NCBI GenBank assembly: GCA_038148515.1
Contig: JAYQVP010000002.1
Coordinates: forward strand, 166,537-230,536
Source of the DNA: Poseidonia sp.
GTDB taxonomy: Archaea > Thermoplasmatota > Poseidoniia > Poseidoniales > Poseidoniaceae
Reading direction: 5' to 3'
Length of the DNA stretch: 64,000 nt
This document shows, piece by piece, positions 2,095 through 62,975 of the stretch (position 1 is its first letter; each line of letters starts with the position of its first letter). The notes beneath the pieces were generated by a model. The model was not told the DNA's origin. It did not search any database and saw nothing but the letters and a program-made list of their open reading frames with translations. A program made the translations under genes and the position numbers.

Positions 2095-3065
2095 TCCCCG
2101 TTCATGATGGCCGTCAGAGCACGCTTCACCAGCGTTTTGACCATGGTTCGGCGGTACCGAGGCGGCAGCGCAGTGTTGTTGACAGGCTTAACAGCGGCCT
2201 GGATGTCAACAGCAAGAGCCAGGATGTCCAACGAAGATCCAGCAACATGTCCTTCAACCTGCTCGCTGTGTAGGCGGGGGATGGATTCGAGAGCCGTGCT
2301 CGCCACGGAGAGCGTCTCAAGTTGGCCTGGAACCCAGGCAGCGGCGACGCCGGCTTCTGGAAAATCCCAGGAATCACGAACGCGCAGTTTTTGGTAAGCA
2401 CCCACCATGGAGGAAGCTGAATCCGGAAGGACGATTTTCAACAGCCATTCGCCCGGCTGAAGGACATTCTTCTTCATGCCATCCAGTTCGTAAAAGGCTT
2501 CCAGCGGCAAGGAACGCTCTCCTTCGGGACCCACCAAGACCACCGAGGCCCCCAACACCATGAAATTTGGAGCGAGGTCCCCCTGATAGGTCGCCACGCA
2601 CAACGTGTTTTGATTTGGAATCACACGGCAATCGGCGCCCGTCCCGCAATCGGCTTTGTGACACCAGTCGATGGAACGACGCCAATCTTCGGATTGATTG
2701 TACCAAAAACATCGCGTATCGAGGCACAGGTTCCCTCCAACGGTGGCGCTCTTTCGAATCAACGACGAAGCCACCTTCGAGGCGGCTTGGGCCAACAAAG
2801 GATGCACACCATTGGCCTCCGTTAGTGAAGCGAGGGACACCATACACCCAATCTCGTTGGGCGTCAAACGATGGGCTTCCTCGATACCGGCCAGTGAGAT
2901 AACATGCGGTTTGGGGTTGATTCGCCATTTGTAATTCGGCAGTACGTCGGTGCCACCAGCAACCCAATCAAAGGGCTCACCTCGCTTCATCAAGGAGGCA
3001 GCAAGGTCAACGGCTTCTCTCACCGATGCAGGATGGTGCAACTCAAACGGTGGCATCAGCATCAA
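2091..3065 (-). CDS. xanthine dehydrogenase/CO dehydrogenase family, FAD-binding (medium) subunit
   Basis: 324 aa. The N-terminal 'FELHHPASVREAVDLA...AGGTDVLP' matches the CoxM/XdhB-like FAD-binding fold. A 4-nt overlap links it to the upstream large subunit. Confidence 0.8.
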   Translation of the reverse strand: MMLMPPFELHHPASVREAVDLAASLMKRGEPFDWVAGGTDVLPNYKWRINPKPHVISLAGIEEAHRLTPNEIGCMVSLASLTEANGVHPLLAQAASKVASSLIRKSATVGGNLCLDTRCFWYNQSEDWRRSIDWCHKADCGTGADCRVIPNQNTLCVATYQGDLAPNFMVLGASVVLVGPEGERSLPLEAFYELDGMKKNVLQPGEWLLKIVLPDSASSMVGAYQKLRVRDSWDFPEAGVAAAWVPGQLETLSVASTALESIPRLHSEQVEGHVAGSSLDILALAVDIQAAVKPVNNTALPPRYRRTMVKTLVKRALTAIMNGE

Positions 3066-5872: not shown

Positions 5873-6471
5873 TTCGCATGGCCGGGCGGCATGGTGGGTT
5901 CATCCGGTCCTGTGGGATGGGGGTCGGGATGAGGCTCACTGGCAGCGGCGGCAGGTTCTGCCTCGCCACGATGGATCGCAGCAGCCGCTTCGATGGAGTC
6001 GATGATTTGCTGGTACCCGGTGCATCGGCAAAGGTTCCCTTCAATCGCTTGAGCAATCTCCTCACGAGTCGGGTTATTGTTGGCTTCCAACAACGCCTGA
6101 GAGGTGATGAGGAATCCGGGGGTGCAAAAGCCACATTGCGAGCCCCCATGGGTGGCAAAGCAGGTCTGGATGGGGGCGAGATGGGCCCCATTGGACAGCC
6201 CCTCAACGGTGGTGATGCTGCAACCTTCAACTTGACCGGCCAAGGTCAAACAGGACAACCGAGGCTCGCCGTCGATCATGACCGTGCAGCAGCCGCATGT
6301 CCCCAAATCACAACCTCGCTTCACGCCAAGGGTACCGACCTTGTCGCGCAATACGTCGAGGAGGACAGCGTTGCTCGGAGCAAGGACTTCGTGAGGTTGC
6401 CCGTTCACGGTGGCAGACCACCTCTGACCGGGGGGCGAGGGGATCATCGCGACATGTTCTGTTCCTACCAT
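5869..6471 (-). CDS. molybdoenzyme small subunit, [2Fe-2S] ferredoxin-like (CoxS/XdhA-like)
   Basis: Cys motifs 'CDLGTCGCCTV' and 'CGFCTPG...CRCTGY' typical of [2Fe-2S] small subunits. It carries an acidic/Pro-rich C-terminal tail and overlaps the large subunit by 4 nt. Confidence 0.85.
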   Translation of the reverse strand: MVGTEHVAMIPSPPGQRWSATVNGQPHEVLAPSNAVLLDVLRDKVGTLGVKRGCDLGTCGCCTVMIDGEPRLSCLTLAGQVEGCSITTVEGLSNGAHLAPIQTCFATHGGSQCGFCTPGFLITSQALLEANNNPTREEIAQAIEGNLCRCTGYQQIIDSIEAAAAIHRGEAEPAAAASEPHPDPHPTGPDEPTMPPGHAK

Positions 6472-10469: not shown

Positions 10470-13400
10470 ATGTTCGTATTTTCTATGATTACCATGGTCG
10501 CTCCGCAACGAAGCACTCGCCGAATGTCGCCCCATAACCCGGCTTCGCCTTCGCCCCCGATGCAAGGTTCGCTCAGTCTGAATTCAACTTCACCCGCACC
10601 AGCAGTGACAATGGTAGCACCGGATGCAGCAAAGGTTGCTCATGACCTATGGATGATGAAACTCTCCCAAATTGTCATGCTCGGCATTGGCTTTTTGGCG
10701 ATATGGGGCGGCGTATTCAGCGTTGCATTTGACGAAAATGCGACGAACGATAATTTTCTCGTGCTGTTCGTCGGCGGTGTGGCATCGTTCCTCGTCTCGA
10801 TTGGCTTTATAGAACTTCAAAGTAAAAACAACGACCGCCATTTGTACGACGTGCAAAATTACGCCCTCGGCACCGCCTTCTTTTTCTCCACGGTCGGTGT
10901 TTTGTGGGGTACACGGTATCTGATGGGCGTCGCAACGGGAACGCTGGAATGGACCGTGTTTGGCGACCCCGCACTGTACACCGAATCGGACTGGTCGCCC
11001 AATGCCAACGGCATTTACGCCCAAACAGCGACCGCCCTCTTGCTCACCTACGGTCATTTCCGCCTGCTCAACCGATACAAAGGCGACACGAGTTTCGGCT
11101 GGGGTGTCGCCACCTACGCCCCCATGGCTATTTTGCTGGCCGGCGTTGGACCGTGGATTTCATGGTCGAACAACGTCGTCAGTTGGGAACTTGGCATCGG
11201 AATTTTGGTCATGACTTGGTTGAGTTTGGAGATGTCCCTCCGCTCAAACCGAGCGCTCAACTTTGTGGTCATTGCGTTCACTGCGGGTCTTGTTCCCATC
11301 GTTTACGAGCTCCTCAATACCGAGGCACCAACGGGTGGCGAGGGTGGTGCCTTGTCCTTGCTTGTGTTCATCGTCGCCATGCAAGGGGCCTACGCAGCAC
11401 GAACCGACCTCCGGAAAGAGGTGATGGAGCGCGCCTCGTTGCTTTTGGTGGGTCAAGTCGTTCTCGCCATGGCTCTGGTGCGAAACATGGACTACAACCT
11501 GATTCTGGGCCCGTTGCGTTTTGCTGAACATGAAGCCCTTGCCCCCTATGTCGACATCGCCGTTGCACTGTGGTGCACGTTGCTGTTGGCGTATTTCCCA
11601 GCAGTGGTCCAGCAACGTGTGCCGTGGATGCCCGTCGGACTCGCCGTTGCGCTGTTCGTCATTCCCACCGAGACTTCAACGGTGCCTTGGGTGTTGGCGA
11701 TGGTGATGTTGCCCTACATGGTCTTCGTTTCAAAGGTGGCGCGTGCGTGGGTCGTCAACCTCACCCTGCTGGCGTTTAGTGCCGCCTACCTCTTGACGGA
11801 TTGGCTCGCCATCCTGCAAGATACTTCAACGAAGGACGCCTTCGGTGGCACCTACCTTCACATTGCCATCCCGTTGTTCATCATCGCCATGGCCGAGGGC
11901 GCTCGCATGAGTGACAAGGTCCGAATGAGCACCACCCTCGGCATGTTGGCCGCTGTGATTTTGTCCCGAGCCATCCTCGATCCCGAGTGGTACCTCCCGT
12001 GGTTGCTCGTCGCCTACATGATCGTAGCCAATCTCAGGGTGCTGAATGCACACGACGGTTCCATGGTCCATCGTAAAGAGGCGACACTCTCTCTCGGCTT
12101 TACCGGTCTGACCGTGCTCGTTCTCGGGGTTTGGGACAAATTGCAATGGCCGCCTTATGAGGCACTGGCGTGGATGAACAGCGATGGGTTCAGGCCTCAA
12201 TTGTTGCTCCTCAGCTTGATCATGTACGTCCTCTCACAACGAGGAAAACAATCGGAATACGATCTCGGGAGCGTATTGGCTTGGCTCTCGACAGGCGGAG
12301 AGAACGGTCCAACCTATGACCAAACGACCGGGGTGTGGGTGGTTCAAGCACAATCAGATGAGGATATTGAAGAACGAATCAACGAAGGGGAATGGACGCC
12401 CCTCGCACGCGTGTCCATGCTTGCATCGCTGACCTTGTTTTCATTGTCCGTCAGTGCCCTCAACGACAGTGTATGGAGCGAACGCCCGTACATCAGTTTG
12501 GTCATGGTTCTTCCCGTGATTATGCTGGTTCGAGAATTGGTGAGTATGGACAGGATGACATCAAAATCCAGGGCCACGGCGGTCGGTATGCTGGTGTTTT
12601 TGGCTGCACCACTCTCCATCACGTTGAGCGAGACCTCACACAACGTGTTCCTTGCAACCGTGCTGTTGGATGCAATTCTCGTCACCGCACCACTCTCAGT
12701 GAACGCCTACATCGGCCGCAGGGGGTTGGACGAAGAGGGTTTGGATGCCTCGGCTGACCAAGTCATGTATGCTCTTCTCTTGGTGCTCGCCCTGCTGGAC
12801 ACCTCCGGTGGGTTGTTGTTCTTGCCCATCATGACCTTGGTCGCCGCACGTACGCTCATGCACCGTCACTATGGCTTAACAGTGGCCGTCCCGTTGGTGT
12901 GGATTTTAGGCGATGACTGGTGGCGCTCCGGCTTGATGAATGAGGTGCTGACTCGCCTGCCAGAGGATCTCACGGCCTTCTTGGTCGACTACCACCTCGG
13001 CGCCTTCCCGGCTTTTGTTGGCATGTTGGTGATGGCTCACATGGGGATGACCCTGTTGGTCATGAACACAGATCGTGAAAAGGAACCGGGCGCAGCCGAG
13101 GTCTTTGCCCTCATTTGGTTTGCATTGGGCATGCTCTCCGTCTTACCAGATGGGTACTGGATTCCAACCATCTTCACTTCAGCCTTGATGGCCTATGTGT
13201 GGTACACCGAAAAAGCGCAAACGCTTCCTTATCTCTTGTGGGCGATGTTCTTTTCGTTGTACCTCGGGTTCGCTGAAAGTGAGGCATTTCCCTCTCTGTC
13301 CGACGGTGATGCAGGCGGCTGGAGCGGTCTGCTCGCCGGCGTATTGGGGCTTGGCATCAGTCTGGCCAACACCCAAGGTTGGCTGTTTCGAAACGCACCT

Positions 13401-14555
13401 GAGGACGACGAACAGAAATCCATGCAGGCTGCCACTTCAGTTCTTGCCCTGCAGTTTGCGGGCGTGTTGATGTTGCTTTCCTTCAATGTGGCCTACGGGG
13501 TGGGCCCCTTGTTCGGTCTAGCCCTTGTCGCGTGGTCGGTCATGAGTAAAGGAGAGGTCAACGGCTTGCTGATCTTCCCTCCTTTGTTCATGGCCAGCGT
13601 CATCAACGTGATGAATCAAGGAGGGTGGGGCGCCGAAGACCATCGGTTCATGGTCGGTGGTGCTGTATTGATGCTTCAGGGCATGGTCATAACCTGGTTG
13701 TCAACCAAGGACGACGCACTGTACGACTGGGACAAACACGAATGGGAAAACGATGAGGCATTTTTCTCCTTCATGGACCGTCTTGGTATGATCAGCGTGT
13801 TTTACACGCTGATTGGCCTGTTCATGATATTCGCCCAAGCCAGCCTCGAATCCGTGGCTTATCTGTTGATGACCGTGTACCTCATCGTCCTCGGCATTCA
13901 AGGGTTTGACGAGCGGTTCGATGCACGTTGGCGCCGTGGCATCGGAGGATATGGTTCCATCTTGATGGCGTTCATCTTCTCAGGAAGTCTCGACAGCAAC
14001 ATCTTCCGGGCTGTCTCGATGGTGATGGCGGGAATTGTTGCCCTCGGGTTTGGATTCCTGTTCATGCAACGCATGAATGAGGACGATGCCATCTATGTCG
14101 ATTCAACCTCACCCGTTGAATCACACCCGCTGTCATCACCCACGACCGAAGAGCATGGTGATGTCGTCGAACAGGATGACGCAACCATGGAGTCGGACAT
14201 TGAGGACATGGAGGCACTCGACGACGACACGGAGGGTATGAACGACATGGCTGCGACACCCGCTGCGCAAACAACAGAACATGAGATTCGAGTGGAAGAT
14301 GGAGATGACAGCAACAACCTGATGGAGCACGCGCATGAAGAGCAGGAAACCACATCGACCATATCCGCACCTTCTCATTCAGGATTGTTGGCAACGGACC
14401 AAGGCTTCTCGGTTCGCTTGCCCGAAGACGCAGTGAACTCCATTCTTGCCGCTCTGGAAACAACGCCTTACGATGGCTTTGTGCCAGTCGTGGCGTTCGG
14501 ACCGTCCGGTCAAATCATGTTGACCTTTGAAACCGGTGATGGCCAGAGCAGTTGA
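10470..14555 (+). CDS. very large polytopic integral membrane protein (>30 predicted TM helices), function unknown
   Basis: 1361-aa ORF with uniform coding character, a continuous succession of hydrophobic helices, and an acidic C-terminal soluble region. The N-terminal start is uncertain. Confidence 0.7.
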   Translation: MFVFSMITMVAPQRSTRRMSPHNPASPSPPMQGSLSLNSTSPAPAVTMVAPDAAKVAHDLWMMKLSQIVMLGIGFLAIWGGVFSVAFDENATNDNFLVLFVGGVASFLVSIGFIELQSKNNDRHLYDVQNYALGTAFFFSTVGVLWGTRYLMGVATGTLEWTVFGDPALYTESDWSPNANGIYAQTATALLLTYGHFRLLNRYKGDTSFGWGVATYAPMAILLAGVGPWISWSNNVVSWELGIGILVMTWLSLEMSLRSNRALNFVVIAFTAGLVPIVYELLNTEAPTGGEGGALSLLVFIVAMQGAYAARTDLRKEVMERASLLLVGQVVLAMALVRNMDYNLILGPLRFAEHEALAPYVDIAVALWCTLLLAYFPAVVQQRVPWMPVGLAVALFVIPTETSTVPWVLAMVMLPYMVFVSKVARAWVVNLTLLAFSAAYLLTDWLAILQDTSTKDAFGGTYLHIAIPLFIIAMAEGARMSDKVRMSTTLGMLAAVILSRAILDPEWYLPWLLVAYMIVANLRVLNAHDGSMVHRKEATLSLGFTGLTVLVLGVWDKLQWPPYEALAWMNSDGFRPQLLLLSLIMYVLSQRGKQSEYDLGSVLAWLSTGGENGPTYDQTTGVWVVQAQSDEDIEERINEGEWTPLARVSMLASLTLFSLSVSALNDSVWSERPYISLVMVLPVIMLVRELVSMDRMTSKSRATAVGMLVFLAAPLSITLSETSHNVFLATVLLDAILVTAPLSVNAYIGRRGLDEEGLDASADQVMYALLLVLALLDTSGGLLFLPIMTLVAARTLMHRHYGLTVAVPLVWILGDDWWRSGLMNEVLTRLPEDLTAFLVDYHLGAFPAFVGMLVMAHMGMTLLVMNTDREKEPGAAEVFALIWFALGMLSVLPDGYWIPTIFTSALMAYVWYTEKAQTLPYLLWAMFFSLYLGFAESEAFPSLSDGDAGGWSGLLAGVLGLGISLANTQGWLFRNAPEDDEQKSMQAATSVLALQFAGVLMLLSFNVAYGVGPLFGLALVAWSVMSKGEVNGLLIFPPLFMASVINVMNQGGWGAEDHRFMVGGAVLMLQGMVITWLSTKDDALYDWDKHEWENDEAFFSFMDRLGMISVFYTLIGLFMIFAQASLESVAYLLMTVYLIVLGIQGFDERFDARWRRGIGGYGSILMAFIFSGSLDSNIFRAVSMVMAGIVALGFGFLFMQRMNEDDAIYVDSTSPVESHPLSSPTTEEHGDVVEQDDATMESDIEDMEALDDDTEGMNDMAATPAAQTTEHEIRVEDGDDSNNLMEHAHEEQETTSTISAPSHSGLLATDQGFSVRLPEDAVNSILAALETTPYDGFVPVVAFGPSGQIMLTFETGDGQSS

Positions 14556-15151
14556 TTCCGAACAAGACGAAGAACCAAAGCCATATGGACCAACGCAACG
14601 CCATGGACGCCAAATCACTTCGAATGGTCTGGATCGATTTGGAAATGACGGGGTTGGACATCGAACACGATTCCATCATCGAAATCGCCACCGTCGTCAC
14701 CGACGGTGAATTGAACATCCTTGCCGAGGGCCCTAACCTCGCCGTGAGAGTCCCTCAGGAGATGATCGACGGTATGGACGAGTGGAATACACGTCATCAT
14801 CACGGCAGTGGACTGGTCGACCGCATCAAGGCTGAGGGCGTGAGTCCGGAAGAGGCTGAGCGAGCCACCTTGGACTTCCTCATGGCCTGGGTGCATCGCG
14901 ACCAAGCCCCCTTGTGCGGCAACAGTGTGTGGAACGACCGACAATTCCTCGCCAAGGAAATGCCGAACATCCTCGACTACCTGAACTATCGAATGGTAGA
15001 TGTTTCAAGCATTAAGGAAGTGGCTCGACGCTGGTATCCCGATGTTGCACGTTATCCAAAACGGGCGGCGCATGTGGCGCTTGACGATATTTTGGAATCC
15101 ATTGAGGAGCTCAAATATTACCGAGAACAGGTGTTCAAGGCTCAAGAATGA
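14552..15151 (+). CDS. orn: oligoribonuclease (DEDDh 3'-5' exonuclease, Orn-like)
   Basis: 'WIDLEMTGLD', 'HHHGSGLVDR' and 'CGNSVWNDRQFL' match Orn/DnaQ-like exonuclease motifs. A 4-nt overlap joins it to the preceding membrane protein; the true start may be the internal 'MDAKSL'. Confidence 0.8.
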   Translation: MIPNKTKNQSHMDQRNAMDAKSLRMVWIDLEMTGLDIEHDSIIEIATVVTDGELNILAEGPNLAVRVPQEMIDGMDEWNTRHHHGSGLVDRIKAEGVSPEEAERATLDFLMAWVHRDQAPLCGNSVWNDRQFLAKEMPNILDYLNYRMVDVSSIKEVARRWYPDVARYPKRAAHVALDDILESIEELKYYREQVFKAQE

Positions 15152-16011
15152 CGCCAGTTTGGTGCTGTGGGGTCAACTCGAGTATGGGACGCCATGATTT
15201 GAGCGGCAACGGCAACGGCAATTTCTTCGGGCGTCTCCGCACCGATGTTCAGGCCGATTGGGCAAACAACCTGGTTGAGAAGGGAGGCTTCAACGCCTTG
15301 CTCGAGGCAATGCGCTTCAAAGGCTTGCCACTTTGAACGGCTGCCAATAACACCGATTCGGGGAGCGGTTTCACCATCGAGAGAAGGTGTGCCGGCAACC
15401 GCTTGAAGCAGCAACAACAACCGCTGCTGATCTTCAGACCAGTCATGCCCCAGCAGAAGCACATCGGAGAAGAACGACAGGTCGTTGGCGATGAGGGCGG
15501 TCATAAATTCATCAACGGGCCCTGTTGAACACTGCTGGGCGTGAGGATAGCGCTCCTTGGTAGCGAATTCGGGACGGGTGTCGTGAACGGAATGTGCCCA
15601 TCCCAAACCGTGAATCGTTTGTGCGAGGGCCTCTCCACAGTGTCCACCCCCCAACAACAACACGTGCGGCATGGGCGTCATCACCTCAATGGAGATCGTC
15701 ACTCGACCTCCACACAGCGAATCAAGCGGTGTTACTTCATAGCCCTTCGCCCCTTTGTTCAATCCGTAGGTAACAACTTCGGCTGTGGGCCGGTGCGAAG
15801 TTTTCAACAGTTCTTCGCAACGAACGAGAACGAGGTGCTCCAACCCCGCCCCCCCAACGGTTCCCTTCCAAGCGTGCTGATGGGACGACATGGCCAATCG
15901 AGCACCGGTTTTACCGGGCACGCTTCCAGACGTTGTCAGCACCGTAGCGAGAACAACACAACGGCGCAAAGCCAACTCGCTCAACGCCCAACGGAGGACA
16001 TGAGCGGTCAT
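15142..16011 (-). CDS. xdhC: XdhC/CoxI-family molybdoenzyme maturation protein
   Basis: Rossmann-like 'VLLLGGGHCGEALAQTIHGLGW' and an XdhC N-terminal domain. Start set at internal 'MTAHVLRW' (16011) instead of the ORF-track start at 16080. Confidence 0.7.
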   Translation of the reverse strand: MTAHVLRWALSELALRRCVVLATVLTTSGSVPGKTGARLAMSSHQHAWKGTVGGAGLEHLVLVRCEELLKTSHRPTAEVVTYGLNKGAKGYEVTPLDSLCGGRVTISIEVMTPMPHVLLLGGGHCGEALAQTIHGLGWAHSVHDTRPEFATKERYPHAQQCSTGPVDEFMTALIANDLSFFSDVLLLGHDWSEDQQRLLLLLQAVAGTPSLDGETAPRIGVIGSRSKWQAFEAHCLEQGVEASLLNQVVCPIGLNIGAETPEEIAVAVAAQIMASHTRVDPTAPNWRHS

Positions 16012-16033
16012 GACCCGTGGTCGAGGGGGGCCC

Positions 16034-16651
16034 TCATATCCCTTCGCCTTGCTTGGCATAGGTGACAAAATCGGCTTCAACCTCTTTGAGGAGACTGAGG
16101 TCTTCAGGCCGGTCCACGTTGAGGTGAAGCCATGGAGCGTTGACTAAAACTGGTGAAAACGTCAAGAGGTCCCTCAACGGTTGGTCGGGGCCGGCCTTCA
16201 TGACGGACGATATGCCGTCGCGAGTGAGCAGGATTGGATGTCCCTGACGGCCTGCGCTTCGGGGAGCCACGCAGCCGTCATGAGCAAGAAGCGTGTGAAG
16301 CGTTTCCACAGACCAACCTGGTCGGTCCACGGGAGCCATGACAACGCGTTGGTCCGTGGCGTGAAGGTATGGTTGTAAGGAACGAAGCCCGCATTGCAGG
16401 GAACCGGTTCGGCCAGCCTCGGGTTGTTCATTCACCACGACAAGCGCCATGTGGCCAACCCGCTTCCGAACAGCTGTCGCCAAGTCAGGTCGAGTCACAA
16501 CCAAAACCGGTTCGCAACCAGCTACACGGAGTTGTTCAACCGCATGTTCAACCAGCGTTCGACCCCCCCAATTAACCAGGGCCTTTGGTTGACCCAAGCG
16601 TTCACTGCGCCCCGCCGCAAGAACGATGGCTGGGGTCAAACCGTTTGCCAT
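16034..16651 (-). CDS. molybdenum cofactor nucleotidyltransferase (MocA/MobA-like)
   Basis: 'AIVLAAGRSERLGQPKALVNWGGRTLVEH' is the MobA/MocA glycine-rich NTP-binding motif. It is adjacent to xdhC. Confidence 0.75.
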   Translation of the reverse strand: MANGLTPAIVLAAGRSERLGQPKALVNWGGRTLVEHAVEQLRVAGCEPVLVVTRPDLATAVRKRVGHMALVVVNEQPEAGRTGSLQCGLRSLQPYLHATDQRVVMAPVDRPGWSVETLHTLLAHDGCVAPRSAGRQGHPILLTRDGISSVMKAGPDQPLRDLLTFSPVLVNAPWLHLNVDRPEDLSLLKEVEADFVTYAKQGEGI

Positions 16652-16656
16652 GGCTT

Positions 16657-17538
16657 ATGAACGAGGTGAGGGCCTTGGTCATTGTGCTTCAGGGCCTTCA
16701 TATACGGTCGGCAGACATGACACCCATGCAAGAATGGCAACCACCCGGACACTGGTCGGCCGAGCGCCGCTCTGCATATCAGCGTTCGATGGCGTTCTTG
16801 AGAACCATCGTGGAACAATCCGGCTCGATGGAACTGCACCCCAACAAACACCGACTTCCAACCGTTTTGATCCAAGGTCATTCACGCCGTTGGTATCGCA
16901 TCGATGCTGAGCCGAGTTTTGAAGAGGTTCACTTCGATGGGTTCGGCATCGTCATGGATGTCAGCAATTGGAACCTGCCGGTGACGGGCGGCGCATGGAA
17001 AACCGATGTGTTGAACGAAACATCCCACGCCGTCTCGATTTGCATCCATCCGAGAGCCGAATCAAGGGACCTTCCCATTGGCGACAGGCTTGCTGCCCTC
17101 GCCCTTTCGCTCATGAATGACAAGAAAACGGGCATGCGAATTCCCTTGCTCGCGCAATTTATCGTTAGCCCGCGCAAACATCTTGCGGAGGTTTGGCAAT
17201 TCAGCCAAGAAGGGGTGGTCCTTGAGGAAGATATCTACTATGGCGAAGACCTCATGGCGCAAGAGGAGGATGAACTGGATGATATCGCATCGTTGGACCT
17301 CGCATGGGAACAACTCGATTCGTGGTTGGAGGATGCTGGCCCCATTGACGAACTCGTTGAGCACAACGCTTTCAACCACTGGTGTGCCAATCTCGAAGAC
17401 AGAGCCAACGCTACCAATGAAGAGATGGAAGGCGCATTCCACGACGATAAAACCTTCAGAAACGATGAACCGTGGCATCACAACGAGGATGAAGTGTGGC
17501 GCCTTGAGGATGACCTACGATCGAAGGCAAAATCCTGA
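16657..17538 (+). CDS. hypothetical acidic protein
   Basis: Long ORF divergent from mocA. The ATG at 16657 is preferred over the TTG at 16585, which would overlap mocA. No recognisable motif. Confidence 0.5.
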   Translation: MNEVRALVIVLQGLHIRSADMTPMQEWQPPGHWSAERRSAYQRSMAFLRTIVEQSGSMELHPNKHRLPTVLIQGHSRRWYRIDAEPSFEEVHFDGFGIVMDVSNWNLPVTGGAWKTDVLNETSHAVSICIHPRAESRDLPIGDRLAALALSLMNDKKTGMRIPLLAQFIVSPRKHLAEVWQFSQEGVVLEEDIYYGEDLMAQEEDELDDIASLDLAWEQLDSWLEDAGPIDELVEHNAFNHWCANLEDRANATNEEMEGAFHDDKTFRNDEPWHHNEDEVWRLEDDLRSKAKS

Positions 17539-19976: not shown

Positions 19977-20600
19977 GTGGACAGGCGTGTCGTAGCCGAA
20001 TTTTTTGCGACTGCAACCATGGTCGCAGGCGGATGCTGGAGCGTGGCACAAGGTCACAGCGCGTTGGTAGTCTCCGCCGTGTTTGGCGGCTTGGTCACGC
20101 TGATGATTCTCATAGCCGGCCCCGTCAGTGGTGCTCACATCAACCCTGCGGTCTCGATAGCGCTTTGCCGTGATGGCCGGCTGGAACCTCACCTTCTGGG
20201 TGCGTACATGGGTGCACAATTGACGGGAGGAATCGTTGCTGCACTGCTCACCGGCGGAGCCGGGCCCACGCTCCCCTCACCTTCAGTGCACGTCATGGAG
20301 GCCTTTGCTGTGGAAGTCGTGATCACCATGCTGCTGATGGCCTCCATCTTGTGGGTGATCAACCGAACTTCAGATATGAGGGTCATTGCGGGCGTTGTTG
20401 GCCTCACCGTGGCTGTTTTAGCGTTCAGTACCGGTCATCTTACCGGTGCGAGCATGAACCCGGCCCGAACCGTGGGCCCAAACCTCCTCAACGGGGCATG
20501 GTGGAGCCTGCCCATGTACTGGACCTCAACGACCTTAGGGGCTTGGTTGGCGGTGGACCTCAAGCGAGCCGTGGGTGGGGCCGTCAAGCGTTCATCGTGA
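19977..20600 (+). CDS. MIP/aquaporin family channel
   Basis: Two NPA boxes, 'HINPAVS' and 'SMNPART'. Confidence 0.8.
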   Translation: MDRRVVAEFFATATMVAGGCWSVAQGHSALVVSAVFGGLVTLMILIAGPVSGAHINPAVSIALCRDGRLEPHLLGAYMGAQLTGGIVAALLTGGAGPTLPSPSVHVMEAFAVEVVITMLLMASILWVINRTSDMRVIAGVVGLTVAVLAFSTGHLTGASMNPARTVGPNLLNGAWWSLPMYWTSTTLGAWLAVDLKRAVGGAVKRSS

Positions 20601-23238
20601 CTCGAATCACCTCGACCACGTGTTCCGTGGAAGGAACGGTGTGGTTCTCAAGCGGAGGAGAAAACGGCACCGGCGTATCCAGTGCTCCGATGACCACCGG
20701 GGCCGCTTCGAGTTGGTAGAAACACTCCTCAAGTATGCGTGACTGCACGGTGTGGCCCAAGCCGCCAGACCACTGGCCTTCTTGCAGCACAACCAAACGG
20801 CCAGTTCGTTGCACAGACGCAATGCATGTCGCAGCATCAAAGGGAAGCAACGTCCGTAAGTCAACCACTTCGACTTCCACGCCGTCTTGAGCCAGAGTCT
20901 GTGCGGCTTCCAACGCAATGTGAACCATCGCACCCCACGTCACCAGTGTGAGGTCGCTCCCACCTCGCACCACCTCGGCTTTGCCGATTTTGTAGGGTTG
21001 CCCTTGAGCGAGGTGGTGTGCGACCGATTCGGTATCAACCACCTGATTAATGTTCATGCCCCAACCTGTCAACCCGCCTCTCAAGCCGTACAGGCCAATG
21101 TGCTCCAACATCAAAACGGGGTCGGGCAGTGACGCCGCTTCGACCAAGAGGTCGTAGGCGTCTTGGGGCGTTCCGGGGGCGATGACCACAAGGCCGGGGT
21201 CGTTGGCGAACCAGGATTCGATCATGTTGGCGTGAAACGGTCCTGAGCGGGTGCGAGCGCCAAGCGGAATGCGCACTGTCATCGGGCAGTCTGCGCCCCA
21301 TCGCCATCGTAGCATGGCTGCATTGTTCACCAATGCATTGTAGCCAAGGGCGGCAAATCCGCCAAATTGAATCTCGACCATGGGTTTCATGCCGGCTAAG
21401 GCCGCCCCCACGCCGGTGTGGACAATGACCGCTTCACACAGCGGCATGTCAACCAATTTCTCCCCGTGACCGGCGTTCTTGAGCGCGATGTTCATGCCGA
21501 AGGCTCCAGCGACTTCCATATCTTCCCCGATGAACACACAATCGTCGTCGTAGGTCGTTGCGATGTCAGCCATCGCCTGTTGAATGGCTCGGGCATAGGT
21601 CCACCCACCCTTTTCAGCGTAGGACCAAGCGAGTTCGCCAACCTCCAGAGGCGGAGATGTCGGCAAGGAGGCCGACTGTCCACCGATACGATTCAGATGG
21701 TCAACGTGGGTGTCGGCGTCGTGGAACGAGGTCACACCGCGAGTGACTGTTTCAGGTTCAGGCCAATCCATATCGAGAAGGGCGGTTTTGGCCGCTTCCA
21801 CCCGTTGGTGTTCTTCCTCCTCCATCGATTTCAAATCACTCTCCTTCACGCCCAACCCCAACAAGAGGTCACGATGGGTTGGCAAGGGGTCCTTGGCTTC
21901 CCAATAGGCAAGCAGGTCACGGTCAACGTAGCCAGGAGGTGTTCCGCTGGGGTTGCCCAAATACAGGTCGTCGTGATGGTGGGCGTGACCGCAGCCTCGC
22001 ATGGTTTCCACGTGGATCAGCGTCGGCCCACCGCCCGCCATGGAAAATTCACGAGCGACCGCTGTTGACGCATGCCAAGCAGCTGGGTCCGAACCGTCGA
22101 TGGTCCACGATGGGAAGCCCATCGCCACGGCTTTGTCCGCCCAAACTTCCACTCCCGATTGTTTGGCAGGCGGCGTATCCAACGCGATTTGGTTGTTTTG
22201 AAGGATGTAGGTGATGGGGAGACCGCGGGCGCCTGCGAGGTTCATCGCCTCCCAAAACTCACCGCTTGAAGAGGCACCTTCGCCGATGCAGGCTACATGG
22301 AAGCGTTGCATGCCTTTTTTCCAAGCGGCAAACGCCAAACCCGTCATGGTTGCGCTGGCGATGGGCAAAGGAGCGGTGGGGGGAAGCACACCAACATGCC
22401 ATGCACCAACGTGAAGGTCGCGCCCACCGGCGTCGTCCCAACCACCGTTTTGGTTGGAACCAACCTTGCCGAGGTTGGCTGCCATCACGTCGAGAGGTGT
22501 GTCGCCCATGGCCAAGCCAAGGCCGATGTCGCGAATCATGGGGGCGACGAGGTCGCCATCGTAGCCTTTGCCCGGTCGAGCGGTACGAGGGGCATCGGGT
22601 TGGCGTTCGAGGGCTGTAGCGACGGCAACCACGCCTTCCTGCCACGTTGAGCGGAAACCTTTGCCGCCAAAGGTCCCACCGTCAGGCGTGTCCACGCCGT
22701 TGGTGAACAACTCCTTGAGCGCAGCATCCAAGGCACGGGTCCGGGTCATGGTTCGCTGCCATTCAAGACGGTGGTCAACGGTGACGGCCATGTAGTGGGC
22801 CAACCGGCGAAGCATCAGACGCAGGTCGATGAGGAAATGTGCACGACGTCGTTCAAGCATCAACCGCATGTCCCGTCGCGGAATGACTTCTGTGTCCATC
22901 TCTTCTCCAGCGGAACGCTCCGTTTGCTTGGTTAAACCACGATCCAGGGCTTCAAGAAACCGATTGGAAAAGGCCAGCCACGATGGGCCCTCAAACAACT
23001 CGGGTTCGCCCTCCACGATGTGGTCCCAAATATTGGCGACAAGAAACAGATGGGCATCGTGTCGCTGAGCAATAAACGCCAACACCTCGCTTCGAGCGGC
23101 GGTTTTGGGCAAGGGAGTGGTGAAGGTGAGGGCTTCAGTGGGCGTCCATCGCAGGCCAAAAATTTCAGGAAGCTCGCCTTGTGACACTGCCTGCACCCAA
23201 CCTCCGCACGAGGTGATGGGTTTCAACCCTCTTCTCAA
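20584..23238 (-). CDS. fused 2-oxoacid dehydrogenase E1 component (alpha+beta, TPP-dependent) with N-terminal extension
   Basis: 884 aa. E1-alpha TPP motifs ('CIGEGASSSGEFWEAMNLAG', 'TYRGCGH') are followed by an E1-beta/transketolase-like C-terminal half. The first roughly 200 aa are unassigned. Confidence 0.8.
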   Translation of the reverse strand: MRRGLKPITSCGGWVQAVSQGELPEIFGLRWTPTEALTFTTPLPKTAARSEVLAFIAQRHDAHLFLVANIWDHIVEGEPELFEGPSWLAFSNRFLEALDRGLTKQTERSAGEEMDTEVIPRRDMRLMLERRRAHFLIDLRLMLRRLAHYMAVTVDHRLEWQRTMTRTRALDAALKELFTNGVDTPDGGTFGGKGFRSTWQEGVVAVATALERQPDAPRTARPGKGYDGDLVAPMIRDIGLGLAMGDTPLDVMAANLGKVGSNQNGGWDDAGGRDLHVGAWHVGVLPPTAPLPIASATMTGLAFAAWKKGMQRFHVACIGEGASSSGEFWEAMNLAGARGLPITYILQNNQIALDTPPAKQSGVEVWADKAVAMGFPSWTIDGSDPAAWHASTAVAREFSMAGGGPTLIHVETMRGCGHAHHHDDLYLGNPSGTPPGYVDRDLLAYWEAKDPLPTHRDLLLGLGVKESDLKSMEEEEHQRVEAAKTALLDMDWPEPETVTRGVTSFHDADTHVDHLNRIGGQSASLPTSPPLEVGELAWSYAEKGGWTYARAIQQAMADIATTYDDDCVFIGEDMEVAGAFGMNIALKNAGHGEKLVDMPLCEAVIVHTGVGAALAGMKPMVEIQFGGFAALGYNALVNNAAMLRWRWGADCPMTVRIPLGARTRSGPFHANMIESWFANDPGLVVIAPGTPQDAYDLLVEAASLPDPVLMLEHIGLYGLRGGLTGWGMNINQVVDTESVAHHLAQGQPYKIGKAEVVRGGSDLTLVTWGAMVHIALEAAQTLAQDGVEVEVVDLRTLLPFDAATCIASVQRTGRLVVLQEGQWSGGLGHTVQSRILEECFYQLEAAPVVIGALDTPVPFSPPLENHTVPSTEHVVEVIRVTMNA

Positions 23239-24518
23239 GCGGATTGTGTGGTGTCGTCAGCCAAGGAGCGTTGTCGCTTTTCAATTTCAGCCTCGTAACA
23301 TTCAGCGAGCATGTTTCGGTTGCGCCAAGTGATCGCCAACCCCACCATGGCCGGAACGCAGAGTCCACCCAGCGCCAGAGCCCACGAACCGAACAGGTCG
23401 AACACAGGGCCGACCAACAACGGACCGAGAATGGTACCGGCGGCCCATGCCGCCCCAAAAGCACCGAACGCCAAACCGGGGTGACCTTCGCCCAACGCCC
23501 GGTTGGTTGCCGTATCGATCATGGGCAACATCGGGATTTGGGCGGCAGCAATCGAAAATTGAAAGGCACCGAGCAGACCGATCATGGCGAACACCGCTGT
23601 TGTTCCGTTCAACCAAGCACCCATCACACCAACACCCGCCAAGCACACGACGACCGATGACCAACCGATGATCATGTACCGTGTCGGACCGTTTCGGTCA
23701 ACCCATCGTCCCCAAACGACTGAGCCAAGCCCTTGCATCACAACCATGACCAACAACACGCCCCCGATTTGAGCGGAGGAGAACCCCAATGTGTCGCTGA
23801 GAAACAACGGAACACCTGCTTCGAGGGCCCCTGTTGCAACCGTTGTGATGGCGAGGAGAACGCCGACTCGAAACAAAATCTCGTCCTCAAAAAACACCTT
23901 GATGGAGACCGTGGCCGAAGATCCAGGTGTTGGTCCACCAACCTCGTTGGAGGCTCGCCACATCAACGGACACACTGCGAAGGTCAACACCGCCAACACG
24001 CTGAACGCTTGGGATTCCCCCCACGTAAAGAGAAGGCCGCCAAGGACCGGACCGAACAACCCGCCGATGGCGGCCATGCCCAGGAGTTTACCTGCTTGCT
24101 CGCCGAACTTGGTCGGCCAAAGTTGCGACGCTGATGCCAAACCCGCGGTCATGATGGTCGCTCCGGACGCACCGTGAATCAGGCGAGCCAAAGCCAAAAG
24201 CAAGAAGGGATGACCCAGCCACTCGTTAGTCGCCACGATGTAGATGCAACTCGAGAAGGTCAAGAACAGCAAACTGACAAACACTGTAGGGCCTGCACCA
24301 AAGCGGTCAGTGATCCGGCCGGTGTATGGACCCAAAAGCAACAACGGTACCGCCCATAGGGATACGAGAAGCGTCGATTGTGTTGCATTCAATCCAAATT
24401 GTGTTTGCCATGACGGAAGGATGGGGACAATGAAGGCATAGCCGAGAAAATTGACAAAAAAGGCGCCGAGCAAGGCTGCAAAAGCTCGCCCGTGTTGCTC
24501 GGATTGCTCGTGACTCAC
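23235..24518 (-). CDS. MFS transporter
   Basis: 12-TM profile with 'GRITDRFG'-type MFS loop motifs. 4-nt overlaps at both ends. Confidence 0.75.
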   Translation of the reverse strand: MSHEQSEQHGRAFAALLGAFFVNFLGYAFIVPILPSWQTQFGLNATQSTLLVSLWAVPLLLLGPYTGRITDRFGAGPTVFVSLLFLTFSSCIYIVATNEWLGHPFLLLALARLIHGASGATIMTAGLASASQLWPTKFGEQAGKLLGMAAIGGLFGPVLGGLLFTWGESQAFSVLAVLTFAVCPLMWRASNEVGGPTPGSSATVSIKVFFEDEILFRVGVLLAITTVATGALEAGVPLFLSDTLGFSSAQIGGVLLVMVVMQGLGSVVWGRWVDRNGPTRYMIIGWSSVVVCLAGVGVMGAWLNGTTAVFAMIGLLGAFQFSIAAAQIPMLPMIDTATNRALGEGHPGLAFGAFGAAWAAGTILGPLLVGPVFDLFGSWALALGGLCVPAMVGLAITWRNRNMLAECYEAEIEKRQRSLADDTTQSA

Positions 24519-25603
24519 TCCTCTTCCTCCTTGGCCGGCAAGGCTTCGAGGAGGTCTGTCGTGAGGCGCTCTGCATCTTCAATTTGCGTAAGCAAGGTCC
24601 AATCCGAGAGCGTCCCTGGTCGCTGCAGCAAGCGAAACAATTCAAGCAGCACTTCCCCCGTGAGTCGGGTCAATGCGAGCGTTTCAGGGTCGATGGTAAC
24701 CTGTTGGTTTGTTTCCAACAACGCAACAAAATCCGGTTCCTCATCGAGGATAGCGTCCATCTCCCGCTCGACTTGTTCGGCGATGTCGTTGGCTTGACGC
24801 TCCAGAATGTCCTCCATGGAAGTGCTCAGAGAGGCACTGGTCGGAGCCGCTCCTTCACCCAGCGTTGCCCCTCGATTGAGGTCGTTAAAACTGGGCGTCG
24901 TTGCTGATGCGGGCCCGTCATTCGATGATGCCTGAGGGTCAACGGGCGGAGCCATCTGGTCGGTCTGCCCTCGACCAACCAAGCGATTCAACGCCAGACG
25001 CACCATGTTGGTCATGGTCTCCGCTGAAACATCGATGGCGTCATGGCCATCCCCCAATTCGTCTTGCAAACTGGCCACGAACGTCTCGTCAATGTTGCCC
25101 GCTTCCACCAACCGACGCAGCATCGGCAACGCCCACTGGCTGTCGTTCATGGTCATGCCGACATCGAACCGAGGTGAGGCCAACCCTCCAACGCCGCCTT
25201 GGGAGACTTCAGCGGGGGGCGCAACAAATTGTTTCGATGCATGACGGCCAATTTGGCCAATGAGTTGATTCATGTCGATGGGTTTTCCAATCACCTCGGC
25301 GACGCCGGCCAGAGCGGCAGAAGACAGGAAATCTGGCGCCGTCGTACGAGACAGGAGGACTACACGCGAACTGTTGCGGAAACGTGCTTCATTGTTCATC
25401 GTGCTGCAAGCGTCCAATGCGCTGCCTTGAGACCACTCGCCCTCGATAAGCACCACATCCGGCATCACTGCAGCGGCCGTTGCAGTCGTTTGTGCCAAGG
25501 TGCCCAAGCGCGTGACCTCATACCCTTCTCGTTCGAAGGTGTTGCCCAACAGGTTTCGGCGACCCTCGTTTTCGTCGGCGATGATGATGCTGGCCATGAC
25601 CAT
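24515..25603 (-). CDS. receiver-domain (CheY-like) protein with uncharacterised C-terminal domain
   Basis: N-terminus 'IIIADENEGRRNLL...DVVLIEGEW...KPID' matches REC-fold spacing. The C-terminal roughly 230 aa are acidic with no known motif. Confidence 0.55.
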   Translation of the reverse strand: MVMASIIIADENEGRRNLLGNTFEREGYEVTRLGTLAQTTATAAAVMPDVVLIEGEWSQGSALDACSTMNNEARFRNSSRVVLLSRTTAPDFLSSAALAGVAEVIGKPIDMNQLIGQIGRHASKQFVAPPAEVSQGGVGGLASPRFDVGMTMNDSQWALPMLRRLVEAGNIDETFVASLQDELGDGHDAIDVSAETMTNMVRLALNRLVGRGQTDQMAPPVDPQASSNDGPASATTPSFNDLNRGATLGEGAAPTSASLSTSMEDILERQANDIAEQVEREMDAILDEEPDFVALLETNQQVTIDPETLALTRLTGEVLLELFRLLQRPGTLSDWTLLTQIEDAERLTTDLLEALPAKEEEE

Positions 25604-25695: not shown

Positions 25696-25715
25696 TTGCG
25701 GTGATATCTCCGCAA
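25696..25715. promoter_or_regulatory. near-perfect 20-bp palindrome in divergent intergenic region
   Basis: 'ttgcggtgatatctccgcaa' equals its reverse complement except at 2 positions. It lies between the receiver-domain gene and the K+ channel gene. Confidence 0.35.
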
Positions 25716-25746: not shown

Positions 25747-26577
25747 ATGACCGAAACGAAGCGTGACGGCGCGCCCCAAACACGCAAGGCGCACATTCAC
25801 CAAGTGATTTTCGAAGCGGACACAAGGGCGGGAAAGTGGTTTGATGTTCTTCTCTTGTTGGCCATTCTCACCTCGGTCCTGACCGTTTCGCTGGAAACGG
25901 TGGAAGCGATCGACCGTGAATATCATCGGTTGTTGAAAACTATAGAATGGGTGATTACCCTGTTGTTTACGGTTGAATATATCCTGCGCTTGTACACCAC
26001 CAAGCGAACTAAAGAGTACGCATTTTCCTTCTATGGCGTCGTGGACCTGTTGGCTATTCTGCCGTCCTACCTCAGCCTGGTCGTTGCAGGAACCCAGAGT
26101 TTGCTCGTCGTGCGCGCCCTCCGCTTGTTGCGTATGTTCCGTGTTCTGAAACTCAGCCGTTACGTTTCAGAAGCCAACGTATTGGGCTTGGCTTTGCTGC
26201 AAGCCCGCACGAGAATCATCGTATTCCTGTTCACGCTTTCCGTGCTGGGCATTATTTCCGGGGCGTTCATGTATCTTATCGAGGGACCCACGCACGGTTT
26301 CACCTCCATTCCACAAAGCGTTTACTGGTCGTTGACGACCATCACAGGGACAGGGTACGGCGATACCGTCCCCATCACACCGGGCGGCAAAATCCTCGCC
26401 GTTTTCATCATGGTGCTAGGTTACAGCCTCATCATCGTGCCAACCGGGATTCTCTCCTCTGAATTGATCCGAATTGGTGATTTGAACACACGCGCCTGCC
26501 CTTCATGCTCCAAAGAAGGGCACGATTCCAATGCTGCCTATTGCAAGCATTGCGGTGAAGGACTCAATCCCCACTGA
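25747..26577 (+). CDS. voltage-gated-like K+ channel with C-terminal zinc ribbon
   Basis: S4-like 'VRALRLLRMFRVLKLSR', selectivity filter 'TITGTGYGD', and C-terminal 'CPSCS...CKHCG'. Confidence 0.75.
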   Translation: MTETKRDGAPQTRKAHIHQVIFEADTRAGKWFDVLLLLAILTSVLTVSLETVEAIDREYHRLLKTIEWVITLLFTVEYILRLYTTKRTKEYAFSFYGVVDLLAILPSYLSLVVAGTQSLLVVRALRLLRMFRVLKLSRYVSEANVLGLALLQARTRIIVFLFTLSVLGIISGAFMYLIEGPTHGFTSIPQSVYWSLTTITGTGYGDTVPITPGGKILAVFIMVLGYSLIIVPTGILSSELIRIGDLNTRACPSCSKEGHDSNAAYCKHCGEGLNPH

Positions 26578-27772
26578 CGATGTCACCGGGAGAGGCGGCG
26601 AACCAAGCCATCAAACCGCCCTCAAGATTGTACAAGCGGTCGGCGGGCCAGCCGGCCTGTGCAAGCGCATTGGCCGCCATGTTGGAGCGAACGCCACCTT
26701 GGCAGTGCACGAGAATGTCGGTGTCCACAGGCAAATCATCCATCACGCTGAGGACTTCAGGGTGAGGAATCTGAAGGTTGCAACCGTTGACATGGGCTTG
26801 GTGATGCTCGGCATCCGAACGCACGTCGAGGATGAACGGTGCCCATCCGGTGTTCCGACGCTGCAAGACCTCTGCCATAGTGATGTGGTTGACCATGTTG
26901 TGAGCCGTGAGGGGTTGGGATTTTTGTTCTTCCGATGGGACATTGCTGTCGGTACGCACCATGCACCAGTCTTCTTGGGTAGCGAGCGAAGCAGCCTGTT
27001 GCAGGTCGACCACGGCTGGGCGCGTGGGATCCTTGGCAAAGGTCAGGGTTTGGAAGGAAAGAGCGAGGGCGTCGTACAACAAAAGATGCCCCGATAGCGA
27101 TGGGGTGAGGCCGAGAAGCAGTTTGATGGCCTCCGTTGCCTGCAAGGTACCCACGATACCGGGGAGCACACCAAACACACCTGCTTCTGCGCATGAAGGC
27201 ACGGCGTGAGCCGGTGGAGGCTCAGGAAACAGGTCACGGTAGGTGGGCCCTCCTTCGTGATTAAACAGGGACACTTGGCCTTCGAACCGGAATACGGAGC
27301 CGTAAATCCAAGGAAGACCCAACAGTTCACACGCGTCGTTGATGAGATAGCGGGTGGGGATATTGTCCGTTCCGTCCACGATGATGTCCCATCCAGAAAG
27401 CAGTGACAACGCATTGTCCGGGTGAAGACGGGTGAGGTGGGTCACCACCTCAATACCCGGGTCCATCGCTTCCAAGGTCGTTCTCGCCGATTCAACCTTG
27501 GGCCGCCCCACATCGGCGGTTGAGTGAAGAATTTGACGTTGGAGGTTGCTCAACTCAACATCGTCGTCGTCGACCAGACCGATGCGCCCTACGCCAGCCG
27601 CAGCGAGGTACATCGCCACCGGCGAACCAAGACCTCCAGCACCGATGATGAGAACGCTGGCGTTTTGCAGACGACGCTGACCTTCCACGCCGACGTCCGG
27701 CAGCGAGATGTGCCGGGCGTGCCGATGCAGGTCCACCATGGTACGGGGAGTCGGGCTCCTGTCAAGAAGCAA
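26564..27772 (-). CDS. moeB: MoeB/ThiF-type E1-like adenylyltransferase fused to rhodanese domain (MOCS3-like)
   Basis: 'LIIGAGGLGSPVAMYLAAAGVGRIGLVDDD' is the ThiF/MoeB motif. The C-terminal rhodanese carries 'ILVHCQGGVRS'. Confidence 0.85.
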   Translation of the reverse strand: MLLDRSPTPRTMVDLHRHARHISLPDVGVEGQRRLQNASVLIIGAGGLGSPVAMYLAAAGVGRIGLVDDDDVELSNLQRQILHSTADVGRPKVESARTTLEAMDPGIEVVTHLTRLHPDNALSLLSGWDIIVDGTDNIPTRYLINDACELLGLPWIYGSVFRFEGQVSLFNHEGGPTYRDLFPEPPPAHAVPSCAEAGVFGVLPGIVGTLQATEAIKLLLGLTPSLSGHLLLYDALALSFQTLTFAKDPTRPAVVDLQQAASLATQEDWCMVRTDSNVPSEEQKSQPLTAHNMVNHITMAEVLQRRNTGWAPFILDVRSDAEHHQAHVNGCNLQIPHPEVLSVMDDLPVDTDILVHCQGGVRSNMAANALAQAGWPADRLYNLEGGLMAWFAASPGDIVSGD

Positions 27773-62866: not shown

Positions 62867-62975
62867 GGTTCTCTCACATCCACCGACCTTGAAAATCATT
62901 GTTGATTGCGGCCTTGCTCTTCAATTGCGGCCAACCATCCCAGCAACCCACATCGCTGGGTTGAGATAGGCCAAC

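Follow-up and report, generated by a model that had tools for sequence, protein, structure and literature searches.

A fused alpha-beta 2-oxoacid dehydrogenase E1 with a predicted N-terminal helical domain and a variable gene slot upstream in Poseidoniales

Introduction

Archaeal genes for 2-oxoacid dehydrogenases are found in operons of the order E1alpha-E1beta-E2-E3, as in Thermoplasma acidophilum; E1 is the thiamine pyrophosphate (TPP)-dependent component, E2 the acyltransferase and E3 the lipoamide dehydrogenase. Here we analyse a 64 kb stretch of a Poseidonia sp. contig (JAYQVP010000002.1; the window), in which an E1 with its alpha and beta parts fused in one chain is encoded on the minus strand behind a receiver-domain protein and a major facilitator superfamily (MFS) transporter. 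An earlier note, made from the sequence of this DNA alone, had described these three co-directional genes at 20584-25603, and the open reading frames (ORFs) are indeed present. It took them for a translationally coupled operon of a stand-alone TPP enzyme with its own importer and regulator. Our comparison points elsewhere: the fused E1 may well be an extra E1 that feeds an E2/E3 core shared with another complex, although we hold this reading with no more than even confidence.

The best solved relatives of the window E1 are the alpha2beta2 E1 of the Geobacillus stearothermophilus pyruvate dehydrogenase (PDH; 1W85) and the E1 of the branched-chain 2-oxoacid dehydrogenase (BCKDH) from Thermus thermophilus and human. 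With E1s of the 1W85 type it shares the TPP motif, the beta Glu and both active-site His. Unlike in these heterotetramers, the alpha and beta parts are fused by a poorly conserved linker of ~30 residues, an extension is added at the N-terminus, and an insertion of ~30 residues precedes the beta C-terminal domain. Bacterial fused E1s (K11381, 'bkdA', typically 650-720 aa) have the same E1_dh, Transket_pyr and Transketolase_C domains in one chain with the same catalytic motifs, whereas the window E1 adds an N-terminal four-helix domain of ~135 aa and insertions. It is also a lone gene, while at least one homologue of the short form is part of an E3-E1-E1-E2 operon. The acetoin dehydrogenase E1 (AcoA/AcoB) belongs to the same superfamily of TPP-dependent alpha/beta E1, but the window E1 shows no specific similarity to it: no acetoin-type family is among its NCBIfam matches and no aco-type genes are its neighbours. 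Within the phylum, this enzyme class is also encoded by a lipA-E1alpha-E1beta-E2-E3 cluster of Poseidoniales; compared with this cluster, the fused E1 is a separate paralogue elsewhere in the genome (MG2_0557 versus MG2_0836-0840 in the reference genome). For the receiver protein the closest analogy is given by the plant pseudo-response regulators, whose pseudo-receiver domains carry Glu at the acceptor site. Both keep the receiver fold with its Lys and Ser/Thr and have Asp replaced by Glu. However, the change in Poseidonia is recent and clade-specific (Asp is found in 43 of 66 orthologues), and the C-terminal part is unlike any described output domain in Pfam.

The surface ocean has Marine Group II (MGII) among its most abundant archaea. 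To our knowledge no member has been cultured, and what carbon sources they use has been deduced only from genome sequences. With a second, fused E1 in every retrieved species, MGII cells would be able to oxidise a wider range of 2-oxoacids, that is of amino-acid skeletons. This enzyme is currently annotated by name only, and its receiver companion and N-terminal domain offer testable handles on enzyme assembly or control. For the proposed operon itself our result is mostly deflationary: the locus is one lineage's form of a slot whose content varies.

Results and Discussion

Domains and catalytic residues of the fused E1

The E1 gene lies at 20584..23196 on the minus strand and encodes 870 aa from a GTG at 23196. 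Pfam recognises E1_dh (116.6 bits), Transket_pyr (74.3 bits) and Transketolase_C (124.8 bits), all above their cutoffs and in this order in one chain, alpha then beta. The domain calls of the earlier note are thus right for this gene, and equally for its two neighbours (Response_reg and MFS_1). The TPP/Mg motif GEG-X26-NN, GEGASSSGEFWEAMNLAGARGLPITYILQNN, is found at residues 305-335 (22192..22284, minus strand) and is aligned to GDG...NN of the G. stearothermophilus E1-alpha. Gly305, Gly307, Asn334 and Asn335 are conserved in alignment A1, and the GEG variant is that of the human BCKDH E1-alpha. The active-site loop CGHAHHH at residues 402-408 (21973..21993, minus strand) brings in the alpha His, His404, which aligns with His271 of the 'GPH' in G. 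stearothermophilus E1-alpha; this loop is nearly invariant in A1. The E1-beta part, residues 531-870 (20587..21606, minus strand), was assigned by alignment to 1w85_B. Its Glu588, for TPP activation, aligns with Glu59 of G. stearothermophilus (PLCE versus PLAE), and its His655 aligns with His128 of the same protein and His146 of the human BCKDH beta subunit (PFHAN versus LYH146SQ). Glu588, His655 and His404 are nearly invariant across the family. In human BCKDH, His291-alpha and His146-beta' are tied to the reductive acylation of the lipoyl arm (title of PDB entry 1OLS).

The beta part scores 183 bits against 1w85_B, the PDH E1-beta of G. stearothermophilus, and is aligned to its last residues. 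Foldseek gives TM-scores of 0.87-0.93 between the modelled beta part and the E1-beta chains of solved PDH and BCKDH E1s, including 0.92 to G. stearothermophilus E1-beta, a structure solved with a bound E2 binding domain. The AlphaFold2 (AF2) model of the whole E1 has a predicted TM-score (pTM) of 0.83. The beta C-terminal domain is complete up to the end of 1w85_B, which is indirect evidence that the fused E1 could dock on the PSBD (peripheral-subunit-binding domain) of an E2. Across the 80 related species described below, 135 columns of the alpha part and 117 of the beta part are invariant. From its residues the enzyme is predicted to be catalytically intact; a pseudo-enzyme was considered and is ruled out, because so many columns are invariant in all 80 species. 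The similarity to solved structures is slightly higher for a PDH E1 than for BCKDH E1s and gives no basis for a substrate call, the branched-chain specificity suggested by the K11381 name included.

Location of E2 and E3

Pfam scans of the large window ORFs find no Biotin_lipoyl, 2-oxoacid_dh or Pyr_redox_dim domain in the 64 kb, and the sole flavoprotein disulfide reductase of the window is of the thioredoxin-reductase (TrxR) type. A tblastn search of the window with E2 and E3 of a bacterial operon (L094, below) gives no match at E<=1. The E1 is thus an orphan within the window, as had been noted before. The same is seen in relatives: the gene table of the syntenic contig L001 contains no lipoyl, E2 catalytic or E3 dimerisation domain, no E2/E3 was found within 10 kb of E1 in the 80 related species, and no E1 paralogue was found in the fetched related loci. 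The unfused E1-beta representatives nearest to our query are not from MGII.

Other places in the genomes of the order do have these components. For SIMO Bin 19-2, a metagenome-assembled genome (MAG) of MGIIb, supplementary table 4 of PMC9723583 gives the consecutive genes lipB, lpdA (E3), E2, E1-beta, E1-alpha and lipA, with best eggNOG matches to MG2_0820 and MG2_0836-0840 of taxon 274854. In SIMO Bin 19-2 a separate gene with best match MG2_0557 encodes the fused E1 and is followed by a Na/Ca exchanger as in the window (PMC9723583). Taxon 274854 is an uncultured Poseidoniales archaeon. Its MG2_ locus tags we take to be those of the genome of Iverson et al. 2012. That genome is called MGIIa in PMC6741140. 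Since the MGIIb annotation matches consecutive genes of an MGIIa reference, the families MGIIa and MGIIb both appear to carry a full lipoate-dependent complex and, in addition, the fused E1. The lipA-E1alpha-E1beta-E2-E3 cluster would be the probable source of E2 and E3 for the fused enzyme.

Fused E1s do occur together with E2 and E3. The bacterial operon L094:4490-11459 encodes an E3, two fused E1s (678 aa and 693 aa) and an E2, and comparison with the PDB confirmed that this E2 is bona fide; the Thermoplasma E2 (3rqc) ranks 35th in the search with it. The two tandem paralogues may form a heterodimeric fused E1.

In the mechanism we propose, the fused E1 would decarboxylate a 2-oxoacid on TPP and transfer the resulting acyl group onto the lipoyl arm of an E2 that is probably encoded elsewhere in the genome, which would give the single E2/E3 complex a second substrate specificity. 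This is the most economical reading, because the residues for acylation are kept, fused relatives are found in E1-E2-E3 operons, and the order has genes for E2, E3 and lipoylation. The same findings, namely the annotated cluster, both acylation His and the E3-E1-E1-E2 operon, argue against an E1 that works without E2/E3, as had been suggested. Missing E2/E3 nearby are normal for the N-extended subfamily. Whether E2/E3 genes exist elsewhere and whether the three-gene arrangement is conserved had been named as the decisive points, and the refuting outcome is borne out by half: the order does have E2 and E3 at another place, and the triad lacks conservation, but the pair of receiver gene and E1 is conserved.

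Several points weigh against a shared E2/E3 core, which we hold with even confidence. The E2/E3 cluster comes from the published annotation of two other Poseidoniales genomes, it has its own E1alpha and E1beta, and that its E2 is shared by the fused E1 is an assumption. All six N-extended homologues that we examined, archaeal and bacterial, have no E2/E3 within 8-10 kb, which would also fit an E2-independent enzyme. The NCBIfam scores of the E1 are all far below the curated cutoffs, and its alpha part is divergent, with 96 bits to the best solved E1-alpha in the PDB. Finally, the order of receiver gene and E1 lies within a block of genes that is collinear throughout the order.

Gene neighbourhood and the slot upstream of E1

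This block was mapped by tblastn of the window proteins on the 80 related loci. In most of them the order is TrxR, MoeB/ThiF-rhodanese, a variable slot, E1, Na/Ca exchanger and acyl-CoA dehydrogenase. The content of the slot could be counted in the 70 of 80 loci with complete, readable upstream DNA. It is occupied by the receiver gene and the MFS gene in 26 of the 70 and by the receiver gene and a DedA/VTT membrane protein in 27; the receiver gene stands alone in 10, and in the remaining 7 the slot is empty, with neither receiver nor membrane gene. On a neighbour-joining tree of E1 these states follow clades. Species with the receiver gene lie to either side of the midpoint root, and one MGIIb clade lacks it; the MFS gene is confined to the MGIIa side. 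No receiver remnant was found in the species without the gene.

In the window the MFS gene occupies 23235..24518 (minus strand) and encodes 427 aa. It scores 119.7 bits for MFS_1, and hydropathy gives ~12 hydrophobic segments after merging of peaks, in line with the 12 transmembrane segments assigned before. Judged from gene order, it is a lineage-specific insert in a variable slot and not an obligatory partner of the enzyme, because the slot alternates between MFS, DedA/VTT and nothing. The idea of a dedicated importer for the substrate of E1 is not supported: the transporter is replaced by DedA/VTT in 27 loci, is absent in 10 and absent together with the receiver gene in 7, and its weak NCBIfam matches, all far below cutoff, are to DHA-type drug:H+ efflux families. 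For a horizontal arrival of the MFS gene the composition gives no sign, with a G+C content at third codon positions (GC3) of 0.636 against a window median of 0.646.

Of the 70 Poseidoniales species counted, 63 have the receiver gene upstream of E1, and where the two are adjacent the gap is ~50-80 nt. The mapped loci mark this gene as the only consistent companion of E1. The gaps and overlaps between the genes are short, consistent with a single transcript as far as sequence can tell, and the receiver gene is probably co-transcribed with E1. Adjacency alone is nevertheless weak evidence of a functional link, because the whole block is collinear across the order.

The three genes could then be neighbours by descent only, held together by the strong conservation of gene order in Poseidoniales, with a recombination-prone slot upstream of E1. 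Most of the 80 species share one order of TrxR, MoeB/ThiF-rhodanese, E1, Na/Ca exchanger and acyl-CoA dehydrogenase. The slot is filled by MFS or VTT or left empty, and in the window an ion-channel gene of opposite orientation also lies upstream of the receiver gene. Moreover, one clade has lost the receiver gene and kept E1. Mere descent is harder to reconcile with the stop/start overlap of the receiver and MFS genes, which recurs among relatives, with the short co-directional spacing to E1, which suggests a shared transcript, and with a receiver gene that is kept through several replacements of the middle gene. We regard this explanation as possible but doubtful.

Two further observations were made on these loci. 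In one MGIIa clade (L006, L026, L029-L032 and L048) a gene of the isocitrate/isopropylmalate dehydrogenase family (Iso_dh) directly follows E1. The Poseidoniales block of TrxR, ThiF, receiver, MFS, E1, Na/Ca exchanger and acyl-CoA dehydrogenase is also present on contig L065 (CAXRJJ010000098.1), although the title of this contig, 'MAG: Yoonia sp.', names a bacterium. In layout and identities L065 agrees with L064, and it is probably a mis-binned archaeal contig.

N-terminal extension and spread of the E1 family

The canonical E1-alpha part starts near residue 137 in alignment A1, and the matches to representative sequences begin at query residues 129-136. The unassigned extension is therefore ~135 aa long and not ~200 aa as first estimated. 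Residues 1-136 (22789..23196, minus strand) are predicted by AF2 to form a four-helix domain with helices at 31-45, 47-61, 70-95 and 110-136. A structure model of this part had been suggested beforehand; all four helices are confident, with a predicted local distance difference test (pLDDT) score of 84-95 over about residues 10-136. A Pfam search with residues 1-136 gives no family match. The extension aligns weakly to that of the homologues P0122, P0125, P0123, P0126 and P0131, and, with a column conservation of 0.58 against 0.79 for the core, it is the faster evolving part.

Our search of 1.8 billion representative sequences with the E1 returns three groups of homologues. The first is the orthologue of MGIIb (Thalassarchaeaceae) with 57% identity. 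The second consists of a few N-extended homologues of 35-42% identity, P0123 from Bacteroidota together with P0122, P0125, P0126 and P0131; P0122 is bacterial, because its contig carries a bacterial-type release factor. The third consists of many fused E1s of 650-720 aa without the extension, with 31-38% identity over residues ~213-866. All close homologues are from MGII archaea, named Poseidonia sp., Ca. Poseidoniaceae or Ca. Poseidoniales, in line with an origin of the window from Ca. Poseidonia; the proteins are called either 2-oxoisovalerate dehydrogenase E1 component or, in other records, alpha-ketoacid dehydrogenase subunit alpha/beta. A scan of species-representative genomes gives 585 E1 relatives. 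The best 80 of these 585 were analysed; all are Poseidoniales, with 60-83% identity to the window E1. The N-extended fused E1 is thus present in all 80 Poseidoniales species retrieved, with its surroundings on the chromosome conserved in nearly all of these, and in scattered bacteria.

Published annotation assigns the MGIIb orthologue to KEGG K11381, bkdA (PMC9723583), so that the alpha-beta fusion is of a known type. By similarity, the window E1 is a member of this fused alpha-beta E1 family, in a subfamily with a predicted N-terminal four-helix domain. A search by KEGG orthology number in the supplements of PMC6336850 gave no occurrence. Our literature searches found no mechanistic or biochemical study on K11381 or a fused E1, and nothing relevant on 2-oxoacid dehydrogenase E1 or lipoyl genes of MGII. 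As a separate observation, P0131, whose neighbouring genes look bacterial, is without the NN of the TPP motif and without the beta His region (columns ~360-370 and 720-735 of A1), and may be a pseudo-enzyme.

The extension bears on whether the fused E1 could do without E2 and E3 altogether, as a TPP-dependent decarboxylase, a carboligase or an acceptor-linked oxidoreductase in which the N-terminal helical domain replaces assembly into a complex. Such an enzyme would account for the extra, confidently modelled domain and for the orphan status that archaeal and bacterial members of the N-extended subfamily have in common. It would also fit the divergent alpha part, which scores below all curated family cutoffs, and an order whose canonical complex already has its own E1alpha/beta. 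It would leave unexplained why both histidines of reductive acylation are conserved and why the full E1-beta C-terminal domain is kept, which can be aligned over its whole length to an E1-beta that binds a PSBD. The E3-E1-E1-E2 operon of L094 includes a fused homologue, and the transporter behind the idea of an imported substrate is not conserved. We consider a stand-alone enzyme unlikely.

The receiver-domain protein

The receiver-domain protein is encoded at 24515..25603 on the minus strand (362 aa). Pfam assigns Response_reg to residues 6-117 with 36 bits (cutoff 30.2), and AF2 models residues 1-122 in the (beta-alpha)5 fold of a receiver with a pLDDT of ~90. The C-terminal part is modelled as two helical segments with disordered linkers: helices at 152-214, a disordered stretch at 215-259 and, with a pLDDT of 73-89, three helices at 260-354. 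Residues 122-362 have no match in a Pfam search and contain no recognisable output domain. The acidic C-terminus described in the earlier note is confirmed: the isoelectric point (pI) is 4.24 for the whole protein and 4.05 for the last 103 aa, which again have no Pfam match. Acidity is common among the proteins of the window, whose median pI is 5.03.

Aligned with Asp54 of Spo0F, codon 54 of the receiver (25442..25444, minus strand) encodes Glu in place of the phospho-acceptor Asp. Among 66 orthologues the acceptor is Asp in 43 and Glu in 23. Glu54 is found mostly in the Poseidonia clade but also on a few other branches, which suggests a repeated Asp/Glu change. The residues of the acidic pocket and the switch, Asp10, Glu11, Ser85 and Lys107, are present. 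Asp10, Ser85 and Lys107 are conserved among the orthologues, and Lys107 is invariant. With Glu54, the receiver of the Poseidonia lineage is predicted to be refractory to phosphorylation at the usual site. The search for the family returns 205 matches with one architecture throughout, and the family appears restricted to Poseidoniales among these sequences. No HisKA or HATPase_c domain is found by Pfam among the scanned ORFs of the window. Our literature search on Poseidoniales response regulators found nothing relevant.

A dedicated regulator had been proposed. A link between receiver and E1 is plausible from their association in 63 of 70 species; a phospho-switch is not supported for this lineage, given the Asp-to-Glu change. 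If active on this locus, the protein would act by protein contacts and not as a classical phospho-switch transcription factor. One may think of a regulatory module in which the receiver binds the fused E1 or the E2 core and tunes its activity, under phospho-control in the lineages with Asp54 and in a locked state in Poseidonia with Glu54, while the variable membrane protein provides coupling to the membrane. Such a module would agree with the close upstream position of the receiver gene relative to E1 (63 of 70 species, and 50-80 nt between the two where adjacent), and with a family of one architecture that is seemingly exclusive to Poseidoniales. It would also agree with a protein that has no DNA-binding domain and an acidic helical C-terminus (pI 4.05), and with a receiver fold that is under selection, as Asp10, Ser85 and Lys107 are conserved. 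However, E1 persists in one MGIIb clade that lacks the receiver gene, and around the N-extended homologues of bacteria no such gene and no E2/E3 is found within 8 kb. We looked in receiver-carrying species for a more strongly conserved E1 N-terminal domain and did not find it: at equal distance its identity is 0.40 in receiver-carrying and 0.36 in receiver-lacking lineages. In addition, no histidine kinase is found among the scanned ORFs of the window and the whole region is collinear regardless. A module of this kind is rather improbable in our view.

Mitochondrial E1 is controlled by the histidine-kinase-like kinases PDK and BCKDK, and receiver control of E1, if true, would be a prokaryotic counterpart. 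Yet we think it very improbable that the receiver acts directly and post-translationally, as regulator or adaptor, on the fused E1 or its E2 docking, that is, a two-component-style control of an archaeal 2-oxoacid dehydrogenase whose switch is frozen in Poseidonia by the Asp-to-Glu change.

Gene starts and junctions

The receiver and MFS genes share a stop/start overlap at 24515..24518 (minus strand) with AGGAGG upstream. This overlap had been read as ATGA; its position stands, but its letters are GTGA and the MFS gene starts with the GTG inside it. From a comparison of coordinates, the 4-nt overlap recurs in related loci and in other loci of the MFS type. A second ATGA overlap, claimed at the MFS/E1 junction 23235-23238, reads TTGA, and an overlap exists only if the upstream TTG at 23238 starts an E1 of 884 aa. 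The start of E1 is most likely the GTG at 23196, because a database protein of 100% identity (P0001) is 870 aa long, close orthologues measure 866-867 aa and the gap between MFS and E1 is 35 nt in the related contigs L001-L004. These lengths support 870 aa and not 884 aa. In the window a spacer of 38 nt (23197..23234, minus strand) then separates the MFS stop from the probable E1 start, with GGAGG at 23201-23205, 4 nt upstream of the GTG. Translational coupling may apply to the receiver and MFS genes, whose overlap is conserved in relatives; for MFS and E1 an overlap needs the unsupported TTG. At its other end, E1 runs 17 nt into the end of an aquaporin-type gene that converges on it. GC3 is typical of the window for all three genes.

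Other observations in the window

A near-palindrome of 20 nt, TTGCGGTGATATCTCCGCAA, lies at 25696-25715, in the intergenic stretch from which the receiver gene and the ion-channel gene diverge. It occurs once in the window, is not conserved and is absent from all related loci compared. Molybdenum-cofactor genes are found around E1 in Poseidoniales, in the window at 2091-6471, 15142-17538, 26564-27772 and 50096-50683: MoeB/ThiF-rhodanese upstream, MobA-like, XdhC and a CoxS/M/L-type Mo-hydroxylase nearby and a MoaB-like gene further off. On an unrelated metagenome contig (L096:6897-10370) an N-extended E1 directly follows MoaA. This proximity to E1 may be chance. Two long ORFs probably encode surface proteins. 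One, of 1361 aa at 10470-14555 (plus strand), has no Pfam match and is conserved beside the block in relatives; the other, of 2152 aa at 56441-62899 (minus strand), carries FG-GAP and thrombospondin type 3 repeats.

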